From a bacterium (lineage in GTDB: Bacteria > Verrucomicrobiota > Lentisphaeria > Victivallales > GWF2-38-69): DNA of 64,000 nucleotides. Below the pieces are notes generated by a model, which saw only the letters and a program-made list of their open reading frames with translations, ran no database searches and was not told the DNA's origin. The position numbers were made by a program, and so were the translations under genes. This document shows positions 773-44,525 of the stretch, in pieces. Every line of letters begins with the position of its first letter. Within the stretch, counting starts at the first letter, position 1. Location of the stretch: NCBI GenBank assembly GCA_021781705.1, contig JAJXWI010000004.1:6010-70009 (forward strand). Direction: 5' to 3'.

Positions 773-2125
773 TTAATTGCTTTCAACTAAATCAGAGGAT
801 AGGACAAATTCTTTGTTTTCTTCATGCTCTTTTCTTTTTAATATTTTAGCATTCACGTTGATTCTACGGTTTTCCTCTTTTGCTATTACAGCCATAAAAC
901 ATATACCGCATGCTATAGCTATCCACATGGAGGTAAATACTGAAATCCAGCCAAAATAATCAGACATATAGCCCAATGCTACTTTAGCTAAAAGATCTCC
1001 TCCGAGGTAGCCAAATGTTCCTGTCAATCCATTTGCTGTTGCAATTGCTTTTTTGGGAACAAAATCCACTATTGCTACTCCTATCAGAAGTTGCGGGCCA
1101 AAGATCAATCCTCCCATTAGCCCCAGGCAGATATATATACCTATCAGATTTGTTATATGAGAATATATTAAAATGATAAAAGCAAGAGGAATAAAACAAA
1201 TAATACACACCATAGCTCGTCTACCCTTGAATAGGTCGCTTAAAAATCCCCATATAAATGTTCCTGGAATTGCTGCCATTTCAAAACATGTAAACCCCCA
1301 CGCAGCTTGTTTATTGGTAAATCCCAAAGAAGGCAGATAAATCGTTATCCATTGATCAAGGCCGATTCTTACAACGTATACAAAAATATTTGATACGCAG
1401 AGAAGCCATACGAATTTATTATTAAATACGTATTTTTTAAGAATCTCTGTTAGCGGCATGTTTTCAAATTGGCTGTTTTTTCCTTTTTCCCCAGCTTCTT
1501 TATAATGGTCTTCGACGGAAGGAAGGCCTGCGGCTTCAGGTTTGGAATATCCGACAAAGATGGTGTACATAGAAATAACTATTGCTATTATTCCAGGAAA
1601 TATAAACATTCCTTGGACATTCCCGGAAAAAAGGCTTAACCCTAAAAGCGCAACGGCTGCGGCCAAAGCTCCTCCTATATTGTGCGAAATATTCCAGAAT
1701 CCTAATGCTGTGCCGCGTACTTTTTGAGGGAACCATCTGCTTATTGTAGCGTATGACGCAGGCCCCCCAGCACTTTGAAAGAAACCATTAAGTGCCCAGA
1801 AAAGCATCATCATCCATATTCCGCCAAGGAAATAGGCAAGACATATATTAAATATTCCGCCAAATAAAAGTAATATGCCAACAACTTTTTTTGCGTTGGT
1901 CTGATCTGCTATGAATCCGATTACAAATTTGCCTATTCCATAGGGGATGGTAAAAGCAGCCGCGATAAGACCGATCTGACCATTAGAAAAGTGATATATA
2001 TCTTTGAGATATGGTGCTGCAATATTAAAATTCTTCCTAATCAAGTAAATAGCCATGTACCCGAAAAAGACTGCCGAATACGCCAACAGGCTATGAATGA
2101 TGTACTTTCTTTGATTTTCTTGCAT
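773..2125 (-). CDS. uhpT: MFS organophosphate:phosphate antiporter (UhpT/GlpT family)
   Basis: YLIRKNFNIA, GFWNISHNIGGA, GPQLLIG and GTFGYLGGD motifs typical of UhpT; about 12 TM; GAGGAG upstream. Confidence 0.85.
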   Translation of the reverse strand: MQENQRKYIIHSLLAYSAVFFGYMAIYLIRKNFNIAAPYLKDIYHFSNGQIGLIAAAFTIPYGIGKFVIGFIADQTNAKKVVGILLLFGGIFNICLAYFLGGIWMMMLFWALNGFFQSAGGPASYATISRWFPQKVRGTALGFWNISHNIGGALAAAVALLGLSLFSGNVQGMFIFPGIIAIVISMYTIFVGYSKPEAAGLPSVEDHYKEAGEKGKNSQFENMPLTEILKKYVFNNKFVWLLCVSNIFVYVVRIGLDQWITIYLPSLGFTNKQAAWGFTCFEMAAIPGTFIWGFLSDLFKGRRAMVCIICFIPLAFIILIYSHITNLIGIYICLGLMGGLIFGPQLLIGVAIVDFVPKKAIATANGLTGTFGYLGGDLLAKVALGYMSDYFGWISVFTSMWIAIACGICFMAVIAKEENRRINVNAKILKRKEHEENKEFVLSSDLVESN

Positions 2126-2164
2126 TTCGTCCCAATAGCTCCTCTTTAAAATGATTTAAATTTT

Positions 2165-2395
2165 AAATAACAAGGCCCCGGCCAGATCTTTGAATATAAT
2201 AAATCGATAATCTGACCATCTGGGTGGTGTGAAATCCACCCGTTCCACACTAGGTTCTCTCCGCCTTTACTCTTTCACTTTTTTATGACTTTTAATTTGT
2301 ATTTTTATTTTTTTAAATCATTTCTTTGTGAAGTTTATTCCCTTTTTTTAGGAATAAAGAATATTTGTGTAGTTATTTCTCGTAGTTCCGAAGAA
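2165..2395 (-). promoter_or_regulatory. conserved non-coding leader, copy 1 (candidate cis-regulatory RNA)
   Basis: Block-wise homologous to 42016-42333 (23/27 and 39/43 identities counted by hand); directly upstream of the uhpT-like gene. Confidence 0.6.
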
Positions 2396-2628
2396 AATTG
2401 TTTTTAAGAAACATCTTTTATGTCTATTTTTAGTATTTTGACAGCAGAAATCTGTTGCGTTTATTGACGTTTGAACGGGTGCGATTTAATTTTACCGTTC
2501 TCATTAAAAATGAGTTCAAAGTTAACGCTTCAGCCAAAATGGTACGATGATAGTTTGCAATTAGCAAAATGGTCAAGGGGTAAGCGGAGGGGGGCTTAGT
2601 AATTCTTGACAAAACAAGATGAGAAAAA

Positions 2629-2703: not shown

Positions 2704-2801
2704 TCGAATGAAGGCTATTAAGATATTCGCAAAGAAAGATATTTCAAACGCGAAAAGAAACTTTTTAGTTATTTTTACTAGGGGTAGAATAATTTTTACA
2801 C

Positions 2802-3576: not shown

Positions 3577-4386
3577 ATGGAGGGAATTATGTCTATTGCT
3601 TCTCAAAATAAAACAAATGGAAAGTTTCAAGATTTTTTTCGATCTATTCAGGGTGTCGCAGCTTGTGTTTCAGGCAGGATAGAAGTATTGGGAAATTATA
3701 CTGCGTATAATGAAGGATTAGTGCTTAGTACTGCAACTGATAAGGATTCTTATTTTTCAGCAAACCTTGTTGATGAAGAAATAGCTAAAGATAATTTAAT
3801 ATTGTGCGATTTTAGAGAATTTTCTATTATAGACAAAGTAAAATTTTCTCCTGATTATCTATTTGTCATAGTTGATTCCATGGTTAATCAAGAATTTGTC
3901 GAATCAGATTATAAATTGAGAAGAGAGAGCTGTGAAAGGGCTGTTGAGTGTATAAAGAAAAAATATCCGCGTATCAAGGCGCTCAGAGATGTTTCCTCTG
4001 TGATGCTTAAAGATGTCAAAAATTTACTGGACCTTACCGATTATAAAAGAGCTTCTCACATAGTTTCGGAAAATGACCTGGCCTTAAAATGTATGCAGGC
4101 GCTGAAGGATGGTGATATAGAACGCTTCGGTTCATATTTGTATTTATCGAATGAGAGTTCCAGAAACTACTTCGAGAATAGCTGCCATGAGCTTGACTAT
4201 CTTGTAGAACTTTCGAAATCTATTCCAGGGTGTGTTGGCGCCAGACTCAGCGGGTTGGGGTTTGGCGGTATTTCTATTCATGTCGTCAAAAAAGAAGAGG
4301 CTGACAGATACAGCGCAAGAATTGCGACAGCCTTTAAATTGTTAACGAATACAGAACCTCAAATAATTGTTTGTGGTGGCGGGTAA
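3577..4386 (+). CDS. galactokinase-like protein with large internal deletion
   Basis: GRIEVLGNYTAYNEG (GalK signature variant) and GARLSGLGFGG present; PxGxGLSSSA and CGxMDQ absent. Confidence 0.75.
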   Translation: MEGIMSIASQNKTNGKFQDFFRSIQGVAACVSGRIEVLGNYTAYNEGLVLSTATDKDSYFSANLVDEEIAKDNLILCDFREFSIIDKVKFSPDYLFVIVDSMVNQEFVESDYKLRRESCERAVECIKKKYPRIKALRDVSSVMLKDVKNLLDLTDYKRASHIVSENDLALKCMQALKDGDIERFGSYLYLSNESSRNYFENSCHELDYLVELSKSIPGCVGARLSGLGFGGISIHVVKKEEADRYSARIATAFKLLTNTEPQIIVCGGG

Positions 4387-40397: not shown

Positions 40398-41960
40398 TTA
40401 ATTATTATCTTTTTTGTAGTAACTATTGATTCCCCAAAAATAGAATATCAGGGACATAATGCATACGACCACATTATCCCAAAAAATTGGAATAAGTCCG
40501 ATTCCTCCGAACTCTTTGCTCCCTAAATATGAGCTGATAGCTGCGAAGATCAGGAACATTATTAACCATAAGCTTGATTTAAATTGTTTAAAGAGAGAGC
40601 CCCACCCTGCTTTATTTTGATAATATACATAAAATACAAATCCGCTAAGACCAAGAAGAATTACTTGTCCGGATAAAGGCCATGTCCCCCAGTGAAGAAA
40701 CAGTCCGCATATAACAAAAGCCACAGCGCATATAAAATTGGCGAACGGAAGCTTAAAGGGTCTTTCTGCGTTAGGGCGAGATTTTCTTAACGCCATGAGA
40801 GCTATAGGCCCGCTGATATAAGTAATTATTTCTGCGACAGACAATACAGCTGCAAATTGTTGCCAGCCTCTGAAGAAAAATAGGAATATGAAACATACGA
40901 TAAGGACAGTCCACAAGGCGCCTCTGGGTATTCCGTATTTTGGATTTAGTTTTCCCAGATATTTTGGCATCTGATTATTATGACTCATTCCATATAGCAT
41001 TCTTGACGTAGTTGTAAAATATGTAAGGCCTACTCCGCTGGGAGAGACAAAGACGTCAAGATAGATAAAGAGCAGGAGCACGTTCAAGTTCAGAGTAATT
41101 GCAAGTTGAGCGAAGGGCGATCCCATTGAAATTCCGCTCCACCCTTTTGCGAGATCTGAAGGAGAAAGAGCTCCGACAAATGCCACATGCAGGCCAAGAT
41201 ATATAATAAGGCAGAAAGCAATACTGCTAACAAGGGCGATTGGGATGTTTCTTCCGGGGTTTTTTACTTCGCCGGCAAGGTTGGCAGGTGTTTGAAATCC
41301 ATTAAACGCGTAAATTATCCCGCATGCTGGTATAGCTGTAAGAACAGCATCCCATCCGTATGGAGTGAGCGTATTATTTACCACTGTGAAATTTCTATCA
41401 TGAAAAGCGACAACAATGAGTGATATAATTGTAAAGAGCGGGGTAAATATTTTAAGACAAGTAATGTAAGACATGAATTTTATAAAAAACTTGAAAGACC
41501 AGTAGTTTAAAAGGAAATAAACGAGAAGTAACAGCGATGTTGCAAGTAGTCCGCTAGTAGTAAGGTCTCCGGTAGCGTTATCGAAAAGCCCTTTTGTCCA
41601 TGAGAAGTTCCATGATGAGAGGTATTGGATAGAAGCGAGCGCTTCTGTTGCAATTACAGGAGCTATGCCAAGAAAGTTTATCCATGCTGCAAAAAATCCG
41701 GCAAGCTCACCATGCGATTCATACATATAATGAACCATCCCTCCAGATTTCGGAAACATTGCGCCAAGTTCAGCTATCGTCAGGGCTATAATCATTACTG
41801 CCACGCCACATATTGTCCAAGAAAAAATAGCTCCTGGTCCTGCCATTTTTGCGGCGGCCCCTATCCCAAATAGCCATCCGGACCCGATTATACATACGAT
41901 GCCCGATAGGATAAGAGAAAATAGACCTATCACTCGTTTTGGTTCATTCTTATTTTCCAT
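40398..41960 (-). CDS. APC family amino acid permease (YveA-like)
   Basis: IIGSGWLFG, AELGAMFP.SGG, FNGFQ....AGE.KNP, SPSG motifs; about 14 TM. Confidence 0.9.
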   Translation of the reverse strand: MENKNEPKRVIGLFSLILSGIVCIIGSGWLFGIGAAAKMAGPGAIFSWTICGVAVMIIALTIAELGAMFPKSGGMVHYMYESHGELAGFFAAWINFLGIAPVIATEALASIQYLSSWNFSWTKGLFDNATGDLTTSGLLATSLLLLVYFLLNYWSFKFFIKFMSYITCLKIFTPLFTIISLIVVAFHDRNFTVVNNTLTPYGWDAVLTAIPACGIIYAFNGFQTPANLAGEVKNPGRNIPIALVSSIAFCLIIYLGLHVAFVGALSPSDLAKGWSGISMGSPFAQLAITLNLNVLLLFIYLDVFVSPSGVGLTYFTTTSRMLYGMSHNNQMPKYLGKLNPKYGIPRGALWTVLIVCFIFLFFFRGWQQFAAVLSVAEIITYISGPIALMALRKSRPNAERPFKLPFANFICAVAFVICGLFLHWGTWPLSGQVILLGLSGFVFYVYYQNKAGWGSLFKQFKSSLWLIMFLIFAAISSYLGSKEFGGIGLIPIFWDNVVVCIMSLIFYFWGINSYYKKDNN

Positions 41961-42015
41961 ACTTTTGTCCTTTTTTTTAAAATTCAATATTTTATTAATT
42001 CTACTGTAAAATTAA

Positions 42016-42333
42016 AAATAACAAAGCCCCGGGTAGATTTTTATCATAAATAGACCGAGTATGCCCATCTGTATTGTACCTAAATTCCCCCATTGCTATT
42101 CTGTCGACTATCTAATCACCACGTGAACCTTGCGAAATGCGTTCGTATCGTAACCACGTTTCTCTTTTGAATGGTGAAACTCTTATCCAGCTTATCGCTA
42201 CATTATACTTTTTCACTTTTTCATGATTTTTAATTTGTGTTTTTATTTATTTTTTTATTTCTTTGTGAAGGTTGTTCTCTTTCTTGAAAAATAATCCATA
42301 TTTTGCATAGTTATTTCGCATGCTTGGCAAGAA
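42016..42333 (-). promoter_or_regulatory. conserved non-coding leader, copy 2 (candidate cis-regulatory RNA)
   Basis: Homologous to 2165-2395 but with a longer structured core; directly upstream of the APC permease. Confidence 0.6.
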
Positions 42334-42543
42334 TTTTATGTGTTGTACTACATGAATATTAAAAAATCAAAAAAGAAGGGAGTACAGTTTTTGAAAAATG
42401 ATTAACTGTTTTAAGTGTTGAACCTTTGAGCTTGTAACTTTTTATAATTTAAGATAGAGTAACAAAAGTTATTTACTTTTGCCGGCTCCGGCCCTAATTT
42501 TGCAATGTTTTTGTTAATAATATTAAGTCTAAGGTATAAAGTT

Positions 42544-42942
42544 ATGAAAAAACTGGATCATATCGGAATCGCGGTTAAATCCATAGAAGAGGCTTTAAAG
42601 CTTTACTCGGGACTTTTGGGATATCAGTCAAAAGGGGAAGAAGTGCTTGAAACCAGGGGCATAAAAGTATGCTTTCTTGATGTTAATGGAACAAAGATAG
42701 AATTACTTCAGCCAGTAAGAGAAGATTCAGATATTTCAAAGTATCTCGAAAAGAAGGGCGAAGGCCTTCATCATCTCGCGTATAGCGTTGATAATGTTCA
42801 GGAAATGATAGACAAGGCTAAAGCAATGGGGCTTACGACGCTAAGCGATACGCCTAAACCAGGCGCGCATAATACTCTTATAGCTTTCATACATCCGAAA
42901 TCGGCAAATGGTGTCTTAACAGAACTTGTTCAACATAATTAA
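42544..42942 (+). CDS. mce: methylmalonyl-CoA epimerase
   Basis: LDHIGIAV, KIELL, GEGLHHLAY, FIHPK..NGVLTEL. Confidence 0.92.
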   Translation: MKKLDHIGIAVKSIEEALKLYSGLLGYQSKGEEVLETRGIKVCFLDVNGTKIELLQPVREDSDISKYLEKKGEGLHHLAYSVDNVQEMIDKAKAMGLTTLSDTPKPGAHNTLIAFIHPKSANGVLTELVQHN

Positions 42943-42956
42943 GGAGATTCTGAAGA

Positions 42957-44525
42957 ATGTCTAACTGTAATAATAACGATGCTCTCGGACATATACTTGA
43001 TGCACTTAAGGCCAGAGATCAAAAACTTGACCTCGCCGGAGGCGAAGCAGCTATAGAAAAACAGCACGCGCAGGGCAAGCTCACAGCAAGGGAAAGAATC
43101 CTGGCTTTGGTAGATGAGGGATCCTTTCAAGAGATAGATAAGTTTGTCAAGCATAGAGGTACATACTTCGGTTTGGATAAAAAAGAAATACCTTACGATG
43201 CGGTAGTTACTGGATTTGGGACTGTTAATGGGCAGAAAATTGCTGTTTTTTCCCAGGATTTTACAGTTCAGGCAGGTTCTCTCGGCGAAATGCACGCCAA
43301 GAAAATTATAAAGCTGCAGGATCTTGCGCTAAAATATAGCATTCCGATTATCGGAATAAACGACTCGGGCGGCGCCAGGATACAGGAAGGTGTAGATGCT
43401 TTGTTCGGGTACGGCGGGATTTTTCTTAGAAATACTCATGCTTCGGGTGTGATTCCACAGATTTCAATAATTTCAGGTCCGTGCGCCGGAGGAGCAGTTT
43501 ATTCTCCCGCTATTACTGACTTTATAATAATGGTAGATGAGATTTCTCAGATGTTTATAACCGGGCCGGCTGTCGTCAAGGCGGTTACCAATGAGGATAT
43601 AGACAAGGACGGGCTCGGAGGAGCAGTGATTCACAATAGCGTAAGCGGCGTTGCTCATTTCATAGCAAAGAGCGATGAAGACGCTATGAATTTGACAAGA
43701 AAGATTCTTTCTTATATTCCGTCGAACAATCAGTATAAAGTTGAAGATAGTGAATACGATGTCGACCAAAAACTTGACGAAAAAATTTATAATATAGTTC
43801 CGGTTGATCCTAAAAAAGCGTTTGATGTAAGAGATATTATAACTGTGGTTTTTGATTCTGGAACTTTTCTTGAAGTGCAGCCATATTTCGCCCAGAACAT
43901 AGTTGTAGGTTTTGCTAGAATTGCCGGAAAATCCGTCGGAATAATTGCAAATCAGCCGAATATTTTGGCCGGCGTACTGGATATTAACGCTTCGGATAAA
44001 TCCGCAAGATTTATCCGGTTCTGCGATGCGTTCAATATTCCGATTATCACATTTGTTGATACCCCTGGGTTTTTGCCCGGCGTAGGGCAGGAGCACAGCG
44101 GAGTAATCAGGCATGGAGCAAAACTGCTTTATGCTTATTCAGAAGCTTCCGTTCCTATGGTTTCCATTATTCTTAGAAAATCTTACGGCGGCGCTTACAT
44201 TGCAATGGCATCACAACACCTTGGTGCTGATTTTGTTTACGCATGGCCTGGCGCTGAAATTGCCGTGATGGGAGCTAATGGTGCCGCGAACATTATTTTT
44301 GCGAGGGAAATAGCCGGTTCTTCAAACCCTGAAGAAACGCGTGACGCAAAAATAGAGGAATACAAAAATAAGTTCAGTAATCCTTATATCGCGGCAGAAC
44401 GAGGCTATATCGAAGGCGTTATAGACCCTATAGACACAAGAAAAGTGATTATAAAAGCTCTTTCTTTCGCGGAAGATAAAGCTGAAATAAGACCCAAGAG
44501 AAAACATGGGAATATTCCTCTTTAA
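42957..44525 (+). CDS. acyl-CoA carboxyltransferase (MmdA/PccB type)
   Basis: GKLTARER, DSGGARIQEG, GPCAGGA, DTPGFLPG, RKSYGGAY, KHGNIPL. Confidence 0.95.
   Translation: MSNCNNNDALGHILDALKARDQKLDLAGGEAAIEKQHAQGKLTARERILALVDEGSFQEIDKFVKHRGTYFGLDKKEIPYDAVVTGFGTVNGQKIAVFSQDFTVQAGSLGEMHAKKIIKLQDLALKYSIPIIGINDSGGARIQEGVDALFGYGGIFLRNTHASGVIPQISIISGPCAGGAVYSPAITDFIIMVDEISQMFITGPAVVKAVTNEDIDKDGLGGAVIHNSVSGVAHFIAKSDEDAMNLTRKILSYIPSNNQYKVEDSEYDVDQKLDEKIYNIVPVDPKKAFDVRDIITVVFDSGTFLEVQPYFAQNIVVGFARIAGKSVGIIANQPNILAGVLDINASDKSARFIRFCDAFNIPIITFVDTPGFLPGVGQEHSGVIRHGAKLLYAYSEASVPMVSIILRKSYGGAYIAMASQHLGADFVYAWPGAEIAVMGANGAANIIFAREIAGSSNPEETRDAKIEEYKNKFSNPYIAAERGYIEGVIDPIDTRKVIIKALSFAEDKAEIRPKRKHGNIPL

Follow-up and report, generated by a model that had tools for sequence, protein, structure and literature searches.

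A multi-copy upstream element shared by transporter and secreted-protein genes of a Victivallales genome, interpreted as a promoter/operator cassette

The stretch analysed here, called the window below, comprises 64,000 nt of Victivallales DNA (C93:6010-70009 of a genome of 2.58 Mb in 140 contigs, 38% G+C). It contains two minus-strand transporter genes, one for an MFS protein and one for an APC permease, each with a long AT-rich intergenic region on its 5' side. The upstream regions of the two genes (copy 1 and copy 2, respectively) were found to be 80.5% identical over 113 nt (E 1.5e-21 in a search of the whole genome), a likeness that far exceeds chance. The portion farther from the genes, the distal block, is one member of a family of AT-rich elements with 41 copies in the genome. 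The explanation that we favour, with some reserve, is that of a promoter/operator cassette in many copies, each with a gene-specific 5' untranslated region (UTR) behind it. The original prediction had seen in the two regions a reusable leader platform with a swappable structured module controlling nutrient importers. As a whole, this interpretation was partly supported, and the module defined by the distal block does not constitute a new class of riboswitch.

The element family and the genes behind it

When copy 1 was searched against the genome, many more matches to the distal block appeared. The iterated nhmmer search converged on 37 copies at E<=1e-3, and 41 were obtained in the final pass at E<=0.05. 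A crude call of open reading frames (ORFs), which covered 82% of the genome, showed no overlap with any of the 41, and no copy is located inside or downstream of a gene. A downstream ORF was callable for 38 copies, the other three lying at contig ends without one. Thirty-four of these 38 copies are co-oriented with the ORF, at a distance of 32-428 nt from the ATG (binomial p=6e-7). At least one of the four exceptions, the copy on C47, is in fact followed by a co-oriented signal-peptide ORF, which was dropped by the greedy ORF picker. The copies are therefore not placed in the random orientation and context of a miniature inverted-repeat transposable element (MITE); such random placement is what the original prediction had named as speaking against it.

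A non-autonomous mobile or recombination-spread repeat (MITE- or Correia-like) with an outward promoter, whose orientation bias was produced by selection after insertion and which serves no dedicated regulon, would account for 41 copies at ~75-85% identity in front of unrelated genes, and for the much stronger conservation of the DNA compared with the proteins next to it. A search of 200 genomes of the order did not find the family, in keeping with an expansion that is recent and specific to this lineage. In addition, numerous copies are near contig ends, as would be expected of repeats that break an assembly. Those on C135, C85, C44, C60, C66, C65, C71, C99, and C79 are located either ~0.4-1.7 kb from the end of a contig or on a contig of 2.6-6.1 kb, so the family probably breaks the assembly, and the true copy number may exceed 41. 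The elements do not, however, appear to have family-wide terminal inverted repeats. The short repeat AAATAAC...GTTATTT, which had been described as bounding the element, does bound the two window copies and only these; its 3' arm is absent in the transporter-linked copies on C112, C66, and C59. The boundaries are ragged, with subfamilies sharing varying lengths of flank on both sides, and the confinement to intergenic, mostly co-oriented positions upstream of genes also disfavors a mobile repeat. Moreover, the element subtypes track gene classes, which co-duplication and functional specialisation fit better than random insertion. On balance, we consider a mobile repeat without a regulon rather improbable.

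Thirty of the downstream proteins were scanned against Pfam at a threshold of 1e-5. TPR and zf-MYND were each found in four proteins, AA_permease and MFS in three each, and a Sodium:dicarboxylate symporter, a STAS domain, and an N-terminal asparagine amidohydrolase-like domain in one each; 13 proteins matched no family at 1e-5. In NCBIfam, the MFS protein on C59 was GlpT-like and the symporter GltP/DctA-like. BLASTP placed many of the remaining proteins in paralogue families with common signal peptides, such as family A (TPR), which starts with MKMKFIEMS...LNCYQLYGD, and family B, which starts with M..HNCFQVLKLALC.... Most of the 41 copies precede secreted TPR, zf-MYND, or unknown proteins, and the shared part of the element stands before at least 30 non-transporter genes, so the proposed specificity for nutrient importers did not hold.

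That non-paralogous genes share the upstream homology was borne out, the MFS and APC proteins being unrelated. Behind similar cassettes, the UhpT-like and GlpT-like proteins are 34% identical and the APC paralogues 30-37%. The contrast between upstream DNA at ~80% identity and proteins that are either unrelated or 30-37% identical points to the DNA itself as the object of selection or copying. In a maximum-likelihood tree built from the elements, the UhpT-like copy grouped with the three APC copies (support 91/71). On this tree, the label 'transporter' required a single change and none of 500 shuffles was as good, in a test that is inflated by near-copies and depends on a weak key branch (74/80). 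An element sub-clade specific to transporter genes is supported, and both window copies belong to this transporter-linked subtype.

Some further observations concern the downstream genes. The eukaryote-type zf-MYND domain is expanded, with 14 matches in ~11 genes of this genome (e.g., C14:513-776, C79:2951-3064, C78:15753-15869, C27:27740-27853, C56:18274-18393, and C13:8073-8372) and none in 14 control genomes. By position, the cassette is upstream of at least six zf-MYND genes (on C79, C78, C27, C83, C123, and C44). A 404-aa protein encoded at C127:2023-3237 (locus L048:1-1215, minus strand), with a cassette on its 5' side, matched PF14736 at 9e-13 and had no match in NCBIfam; PF14736 is the eukaryotic protein N-terminal asparagine amidohydrolase family. 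For one of the secreted families without a Pfam match, a search of the protein atlas gave no usable match. The STAS gene was considered as the head of a sigma-factor operon, and this was rejected: its neighbours are on the other strand, and no sigma or anti-sigma gene adjoins it.

Promoter signature and tests for RNA structure

The anatomy of the element was derived from an alignment of 28 copies read in the sense of the downstream gene (A2). The parts follow one another in the order of a 17-bp palindrome (inverted repeat 1, IR1; TGTGAAAT-N-ATTTCACA), a second inverted repeat (IR2; TTATTYT...AGAATAA), the best-conserved core AGAGAATAAAC-TTCACAA (columns 61-80, with the top information content), an A/T-rich tract (columns 82-112), which we take to be UP-element-like, and a -35-like TTGAAA (columns 113-118; T17 T25 G18 A23 A28 A27 of 28). 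The latter is followed after 16-17 nt by nAnnnT, with the A in 28/28 copies and the T in 27/28. A117, A118, and the -10 A and T rank among the very few invariant or near-invariant columns of A2. The information content is 0.5-1.4 bits per column up to column 150 and then drops to 0.38, 0.20, and 0.10. This indicates that the family-wide homology stops about ten columns past the -10.

The family has the sigma-70 layout, TTGAAA-N16-17-nAnnnT, in which the A at -11 and the T at -7 are kept. The tRNA genes of the same genome display the same geometry (TTGACA-16/17-TAnnTT), and a weight matrix was built from 20 sites in the upstream regions of 41 tRNA genes. At the family promoter position, this matrix gave at least 5.9 bits in 10 of the 28 copies, which corresponds to the top 0.4% of the intergenic background, and seven copies reached its training range (>=6.5 bits). 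In an unbiased scan with the matrix, the family promoter was the most recurrent strong position across all copies, with 15 sites scoring >=5 bits at +108 to +119. Since the conservation of the family ends at the -35/-10 pair, the distal block most likely consists of promoter/operator DNA that is not transcribed. Of the leader platform claimed at the outset, what stands is an upstream module that is reused in a locked orientation and has gene-specific sequence behind it, whereas the distal part of the platform most likely does not belong to a leader. As a side observation, the tRNA promoters, TTGACA-16/17-TA(A/T)(T/C)TT, are often followed by TTAGCC or TTAGCT a few bases past the -10, near the expected start, for example at tRNA-Met (window 2704-2750, minus strand).

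Other promoter and operator types fitted less well. Sigma-54, sigma-28, and sigma-B consensus sequences, compared by eye with the alignment, were rejected because of misfits in spacing or key bases. The CRP/FNR consensus is TGTGA-N6-TCACA with a 16-bp core. The family palindrome is TGTGA-N7-TCACA, i.e., 17 bp with a central base, and an operator of the CRP/FNR type, including a PrfA-like one, was rejected.

In the mechanism that we propose, the distal block would represent one of at least 41 genomic copies of an upstream control cassette that is lineage-specific and spans roughly 140-180 bp. Its palindrome, second inverted repeat, core, and UP-like tract would lead to a sigma-70-type core promoter, with transcription starting a few bases past the -10. 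Everything 3' of the start would be gene- or subfamily-specific 5' UTR, which corresponds to the 'swappable core' of the original prediction. One or more putative DNA-binding regulators would recognise the repeated TTCRCAA / TGTGAA half-sites and co-regulate the whole set, that is, the secreted TPR, zf-MYND, and unknown proteins together with the importers of hexose phosphate, glycerol-3-phosphate, amino acids, and dicarboxylates. The window copies would represent a degenerate subtype (ATTAAA/AAGAGT and ATTAAA/AAAAGT), which probably depends on an activator or uses the proximal block as a second promoter.

Several observations weigh against this explanation. At the family promoter position, copy 1 scored -1.8 bits and copy 2 -0.2 bits, and 13% and 7% of the background positions, respectively, score equally well; the other transporter-linked copies are likewise poor at this position. 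The window copies keep the -10 A and T, and the rest of their hexamers is weak. Such degenerate hexamers in the transporter subtype imply that an activator is needed or that another start is used. Promoter-like hexamers are abundant in AT-rich DNA. Alternative sigma-70-like sites were flagged at the homologous 5' edge of both copies, at 2426..2397 in copy 1 (TAGACA-18-AACAAT) and at 42362..42333 in copy 2 (TTAATA-18-TAAAAT), and if a 5'-edge promoter is used, the whole element would be transcribed. Furthermore, conservation across subfamilies extends for ~25 nt beyond the predicted transcription start site (TSS; AGCGAGAAGCTAAYGTG). All aligned copies are paralogues of one genome, so the covariation tests have low power and the conservation is inflated by relatedness.

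A transcribed element would have its promoter at or upstream of the 5' edge and would form a long conserved 5' leader RNA, to which an RNA-binding protein or a small RNA might bind, for example, with gene-specific modules behind it. The original idea is thereby widened to 41 genes. Besides the edge sites and the conservation past the putative -10, such a leader is suggested by several copies that share further upstream homology with TTGATA/GATAAT-like hexamers, and by the motif ATTTCRCA, which recurs in 5' UTRs and sometimes occupies hairpin loops (GGGTGG-ATTTCACA-CCACCC in copy 1 and GAAC-GCATTTCGCAAG-GTTC in copy 2). The upstream promoter-like sites are, however, at non-constant spacing across the copies; the candidates TTGATA... 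and TTTCCT-16-GATAAT were rejected, as they occur in subsets only and their spacing is inconsistent. The display of ATTTCRCA in hairpin loops was also rejected. Stems scoring >=5 were found at 6/23 sites, a set that includes the GGGTGG/CCACCC hairpin of copy 1, as compared with 18.9% of the background positions (n = 2663; p=0.26). Around ATTTCRCA, a helix of four base pairs, GANN/NNTC, appeared compensatory by eye, but it was not supported, as it requires a sliding register and was not recovered by RNAalifold.

Further tests for RNA structure gave no signal. Searching the whole window with Rfam at the gathering threshold detected three tRNAs only, and 20 loci with element and gene, 31,197 bases in total, gave no match at E<=1, in line with the statement that no known riboswitch consensus is matched. 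For the two palindromes together, pairing was 72.1% against 71.7% in shuffles, with 186/500 shuffles as good, and the covariation score was 0.139 against 0.142; with all sequences being paralogues of one genome, this negative covariation result is weak evidence. RNAalifold predicted 0 pairs both on the 28 elements and on eight related leaders. The copy 1 leader folded at -34.6 kcal/mol in RNAfold, and neither leader folded better than its shuffles (z = -0.38 for copy 1 and +0.18 for copy 2). A scan for terminator-like sites found none in either leader. The swappable structured RNA module of the original prediction was not upheld by these results, and we regard a transcribed leader as unlikely. 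As the palindromes lack a pairing or covariation signal, we take them, like the repeated TTCRCAA half-sites, to be DNA bound by protein, and the distal block to combine promoter and operator.

The two window leaders and their surroundings

The gene downstream of copy 1 (773..2125, minus strand) encodes an MFS organophosphate:phosphate antiporter of the UhpT-like type (Pfam MFS_1, 6e-61; NCBIfam UhpT, 479.7 bits, slightly below the cut-off of 497). The gene downstream of copy 2 (40398..41960, minus strand) encodes an APC-family amino-acid permease (Pfam AA_permease_2, 1e-51), which NCBIfam assigned to an amino acid transporter subfamily. The correspondences first noticed between the two upstream regions were all confirmed. 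The distal blocks at 2268-2310 and 42206-42248 are identical at 39/43 positions and the proximal blocks at 2165-2191 and 42016-42042 at 23/27. Both copies contain CCATCTG (2216 and 42065), ATTTCTTTGTGAAG (2320 and 42257), and TAGTTATTTC (2370 and 42308), and the GGGTGG/CCACCC hairpin of copy 1 was found at 2222/2236. The cores between the blocks, described as unrelated, proved to be so only in part, since MAFFT aligns portions of them (e.g., GGATTTCACACCACCCAGATGGTCA with GCATTTCGCAAGGTTCACGTGGTGA). By local BLAST, the surroundings of the proximal block are 73% identical between the copies over 67 nt.

Mapping of the A2 columns onto the minus strand of copy 1 placed a degenerate IR1, CGAGAAATAACTACAC, at 2367..2382 (columns 10-25). 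This is a candidate regulator site, which shows no covariation and is therefore read as a DNA-level repeat. IR2 is at 2334..2358 (columns 40-68), with the arms TTTATTCC (2351-2358) and GGAATAAA (2334-2341) pairing no better than column shuffles. The core GGGAATAAACTTCACAAAG at 2324..2342 (columns 61-80) is a candidate activator site at about -83 to -63. The A/T-rich tract (2297..2323, columns 82-112) lies directly 5' of the -35 position, which is occupied by the poorly scoring ATTAAA (2291..2296, columns 113-118). AAGAGT is at the family -10 position (2269..2274), 16 nt after the -35, and places the predicted TSS near 2262. If the family promoter is used, the predicted gene-specific 5' UTR would be ~137 nt long (2126..2262). 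It has no Rfam match and includes the hairpin GGGTGG (2236-2241) / CCACCC (2222-2227) with the loop ATTTCACA. On the minus strand of copy 2, IR1 is TGCGAAATAACTATGCA (42304..42320) and the conserved core is AGAGAACAACCTTCACAAAG (42261..42280; pattern match C93:48272-48290). The family promoter position of copy 2 spans 42207..42234 (columns 113-144) and reads ATTAAA (42229-42234) -16- AAAAGT (42207-42212), with a predicted TSS near 42200.

The proximal block, CCGGGGCYTTGTTATTT, is private to the two window loci. The genome contains 12 matches at <=3 mismatches, only these two at <=1, and seven of the other ten are inside ORFs. The block may be a second, gene-proximal promoter, judging from its hexamers. 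On the minus strand of copy 1 (2165..2191), the candidate TTCAAA (2189-2194) -16- TGTTAT (2167-2172) scored 7.2 bits, which falls among the scores of the tRNA promoters; on that of copy 2 (42016..42042), ATGATA (42042-42047) -18- TGTTAT (42018-42023) scored 6.6 bits. These promoters would leave ordinary 5' UTRs of ~35 nt in copy 1 and ~50 nt in copy 2. About one such matrix match per leader is expected by chance, so the proximal promoter is only a lead.

Both leaders also contain an 18-codon upstream ORF (uORF) on the minus strand, with no Shine-Dalgarno (SD) motif. The uORF of copy 1, MVRLSIYYIQRSGRGLVI (2163..2219), starts in the conserved CAGATGG, and that of copy 2, MGILGLFMIKIYPGLCYF (42012..42068), has the homologous ATG as its start. 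In the two uORFs, the shared nucleotides are read in different frames, owing to a length difference of 2 nt; equal length is regained through two additional T in front of the stop. The uORF of copy 1 is probably fortuitous, and chance is sufficient to explain both.

The proximal block and the core of these two leaders might together constitute a private attenuator or SD-sequestering switch. The restriction of the block to the two loci and the homologous start of the uORFs are in keeping with this, and copy 1 can form GGUCAGAU/AUCUGGCC beside two hairpins that exclude each other (GUGUGGAA/UUUCACAC versus GGGUGG/CCACCC), and a U-rich stretch comes next. In copy 2, however, the helix has only 5/8 pairs under direct alignment. 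The scan that found no terminator in either leader, the fold z-scores of about zero, the differing frames of the uORFs, and their missing SD motifs disfavor such a switch as well, and two sequences provide no statistical power. We consider it very unlikely.

Two neighbouring loci were also inspected. Divergent from copy 2, a glyoxalase-fold (methylmalonyl-CoA-epimerase-like) gene and a carboxyltransferase gene occupy 42505-44525 on the plus strand. Among 80 loci kept from species-representative genomes, the closest relatives of the carboxyltransferase are 63% identical and come from many bacterial and archaeal phyla, which suggests a lineage without close named relatives in these genomes. A 269-aa ORF at 3577-4386 (plus strand) carries only the N-terminal signature of galactokinase and a GHMP-kinase C-terminal domain. 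The usual galactokinases are longer, and this ORF may be truncated or mis-started.

Distribution, meaning, and comparison with known systems

Outside this genome, the element was not recovered. BLAST with the element against 40 relatives returned only AT-rich matches of 24-55 nt, in seven genomes, and the copy 2 leader gave low-complexity matches only. For the core pattern, 15 occurrences were counted in this genome, as against none in any of 200 further genomes of the order; its reversed control had 0 occurrences. In metagenome contigs, the pattern was found in 119 stretches. None of the 80 loci kept matched the element hidden Markov model (HMM) at E<=0.01, so these pattern matches are attributable to chance. 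The term lineage-specific is used here in the sense of not found in the genomes searched, in which this genome is the sole representative of its genus. For the UhpT-like protein, no relative was confirmed in the genome and metagenome contig collections.

DNA matching the window occurs in mine-drainage, tailings, and groundwater metagenomes, with an approximately two-fold excess of their contigs on 2268-2331, which is the pattern of a repeat. No RNA run was listed among the data sets with this DNA. Across 2091-2612, the contigs of metagenome sets X4 to X6 show one differing letter or none. A contig of set X3 over 1500-2385 has four differences, all within 2300-2349 and at most 86 nt from the contig end, which may reflect a repeat-induced join, and a 154-nt contig of the same set has ten differences in 2386-2479. 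This strain variation offers nothing usable for covariation.

If the cassette defines one regulon, a single sequence search lists ~40 co-regulated genes of an uncultured mine-drainage and groundwater organism. The products of most listed genes are secreted proteins that have eukaryote-like domains or no known function, and the rest are importers of metabolites that are typical of a host cytosol. If true, this would give a testable pointer to a host-associated lifestyle and make the cassette a sequence tag for candidate effectors of the lineage. Upstream DNA of ~80% identity in front of proteins that are unrelated or ~34% identical would be a clean case of promoter copying or homogenisation between genes. 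A bolder version, which we offer tentatively, is that recombination or a process akin to transposition has spread a copy-and-paste cassette of ~150 bp, with regulator sites, UP tract, and core promoter. The cassette would wire importers of host-type metabolites and an expanded set of eukaryote-like secreted proteins (TPR, zf-MYND, and an N-terminal-asparagine-amidohydrolase-like protein) into one regulon in an uncultured, apparently host-associated bacterium, with a diverged subtype dedicated to transporters.

Among known systems, riboswitches, T-box leaders, and attenuators resemble the cassette in the long conserved region with local hairpins before transporter genes. They differ from it in the Rfam match, covariation, thermodynamic signal, and terminator that the cassette lacks, and in the many non-transporter genes behind it. 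Correia elements of Neisseria have terminal inverted repeats and target duplications and are found in both orientations, also downstream of genes. The likeness to them lies in a multi-copy, short intergenic repeat able to supply promoter activity, whereas family-wide terminal inverted repeats, spread in both orientations, and gene-downstream copies were not seen in the cassette family.

A functional likeness is offered by regulons that are defined by an upstream box. In the PrfA regulon of Listeria, the UhpT homologue Hpt is PrfA-dependent, and one site ties secreted host-interaction proteins to a hexose-phosphate importer. PmrA-type effector promoters likewise define a virulence regulon by an upstream box. 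In the same manner, a UhpT-like gene, other importers, and eukaryote-like secreted proteins are found here behind one cassette. The PrfA and PmrA boxes are 14-20 bp long, whereas the present cassette extends over ~140-180 bp at 75-85% identity and contains an N7 palindrome. Promoter motifs are reported to be used for the prediction of type IV effectors by S4TE 2.0 (PMC6448907).

The closest documented analogue appears to be the erp / 'upstream homology box' arrangement of Borrelia burgdorferi. There, co-expressed genes with diverse coding regions have the same promoter and operator DNA in front of them, and in some families a signal or leader peptide is conserved as well (PMC10016077). The erp genes encode lipoproteins and lie at one allelic position on cp32 prophage plasmids, with BpaB, BpuR, and EbfC as regulators. 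The present copies, which have no sequence similarity to the Borrelia DNA, are instead scattered over many chromosomal contigs and also precede polytopic transporters, a STAS protein, and unrelated genes. In both organisms, the same long upstream sequence stands before many diverse genes and is oriented towards them, and families A and B here share a signal peptide together with the cassette.

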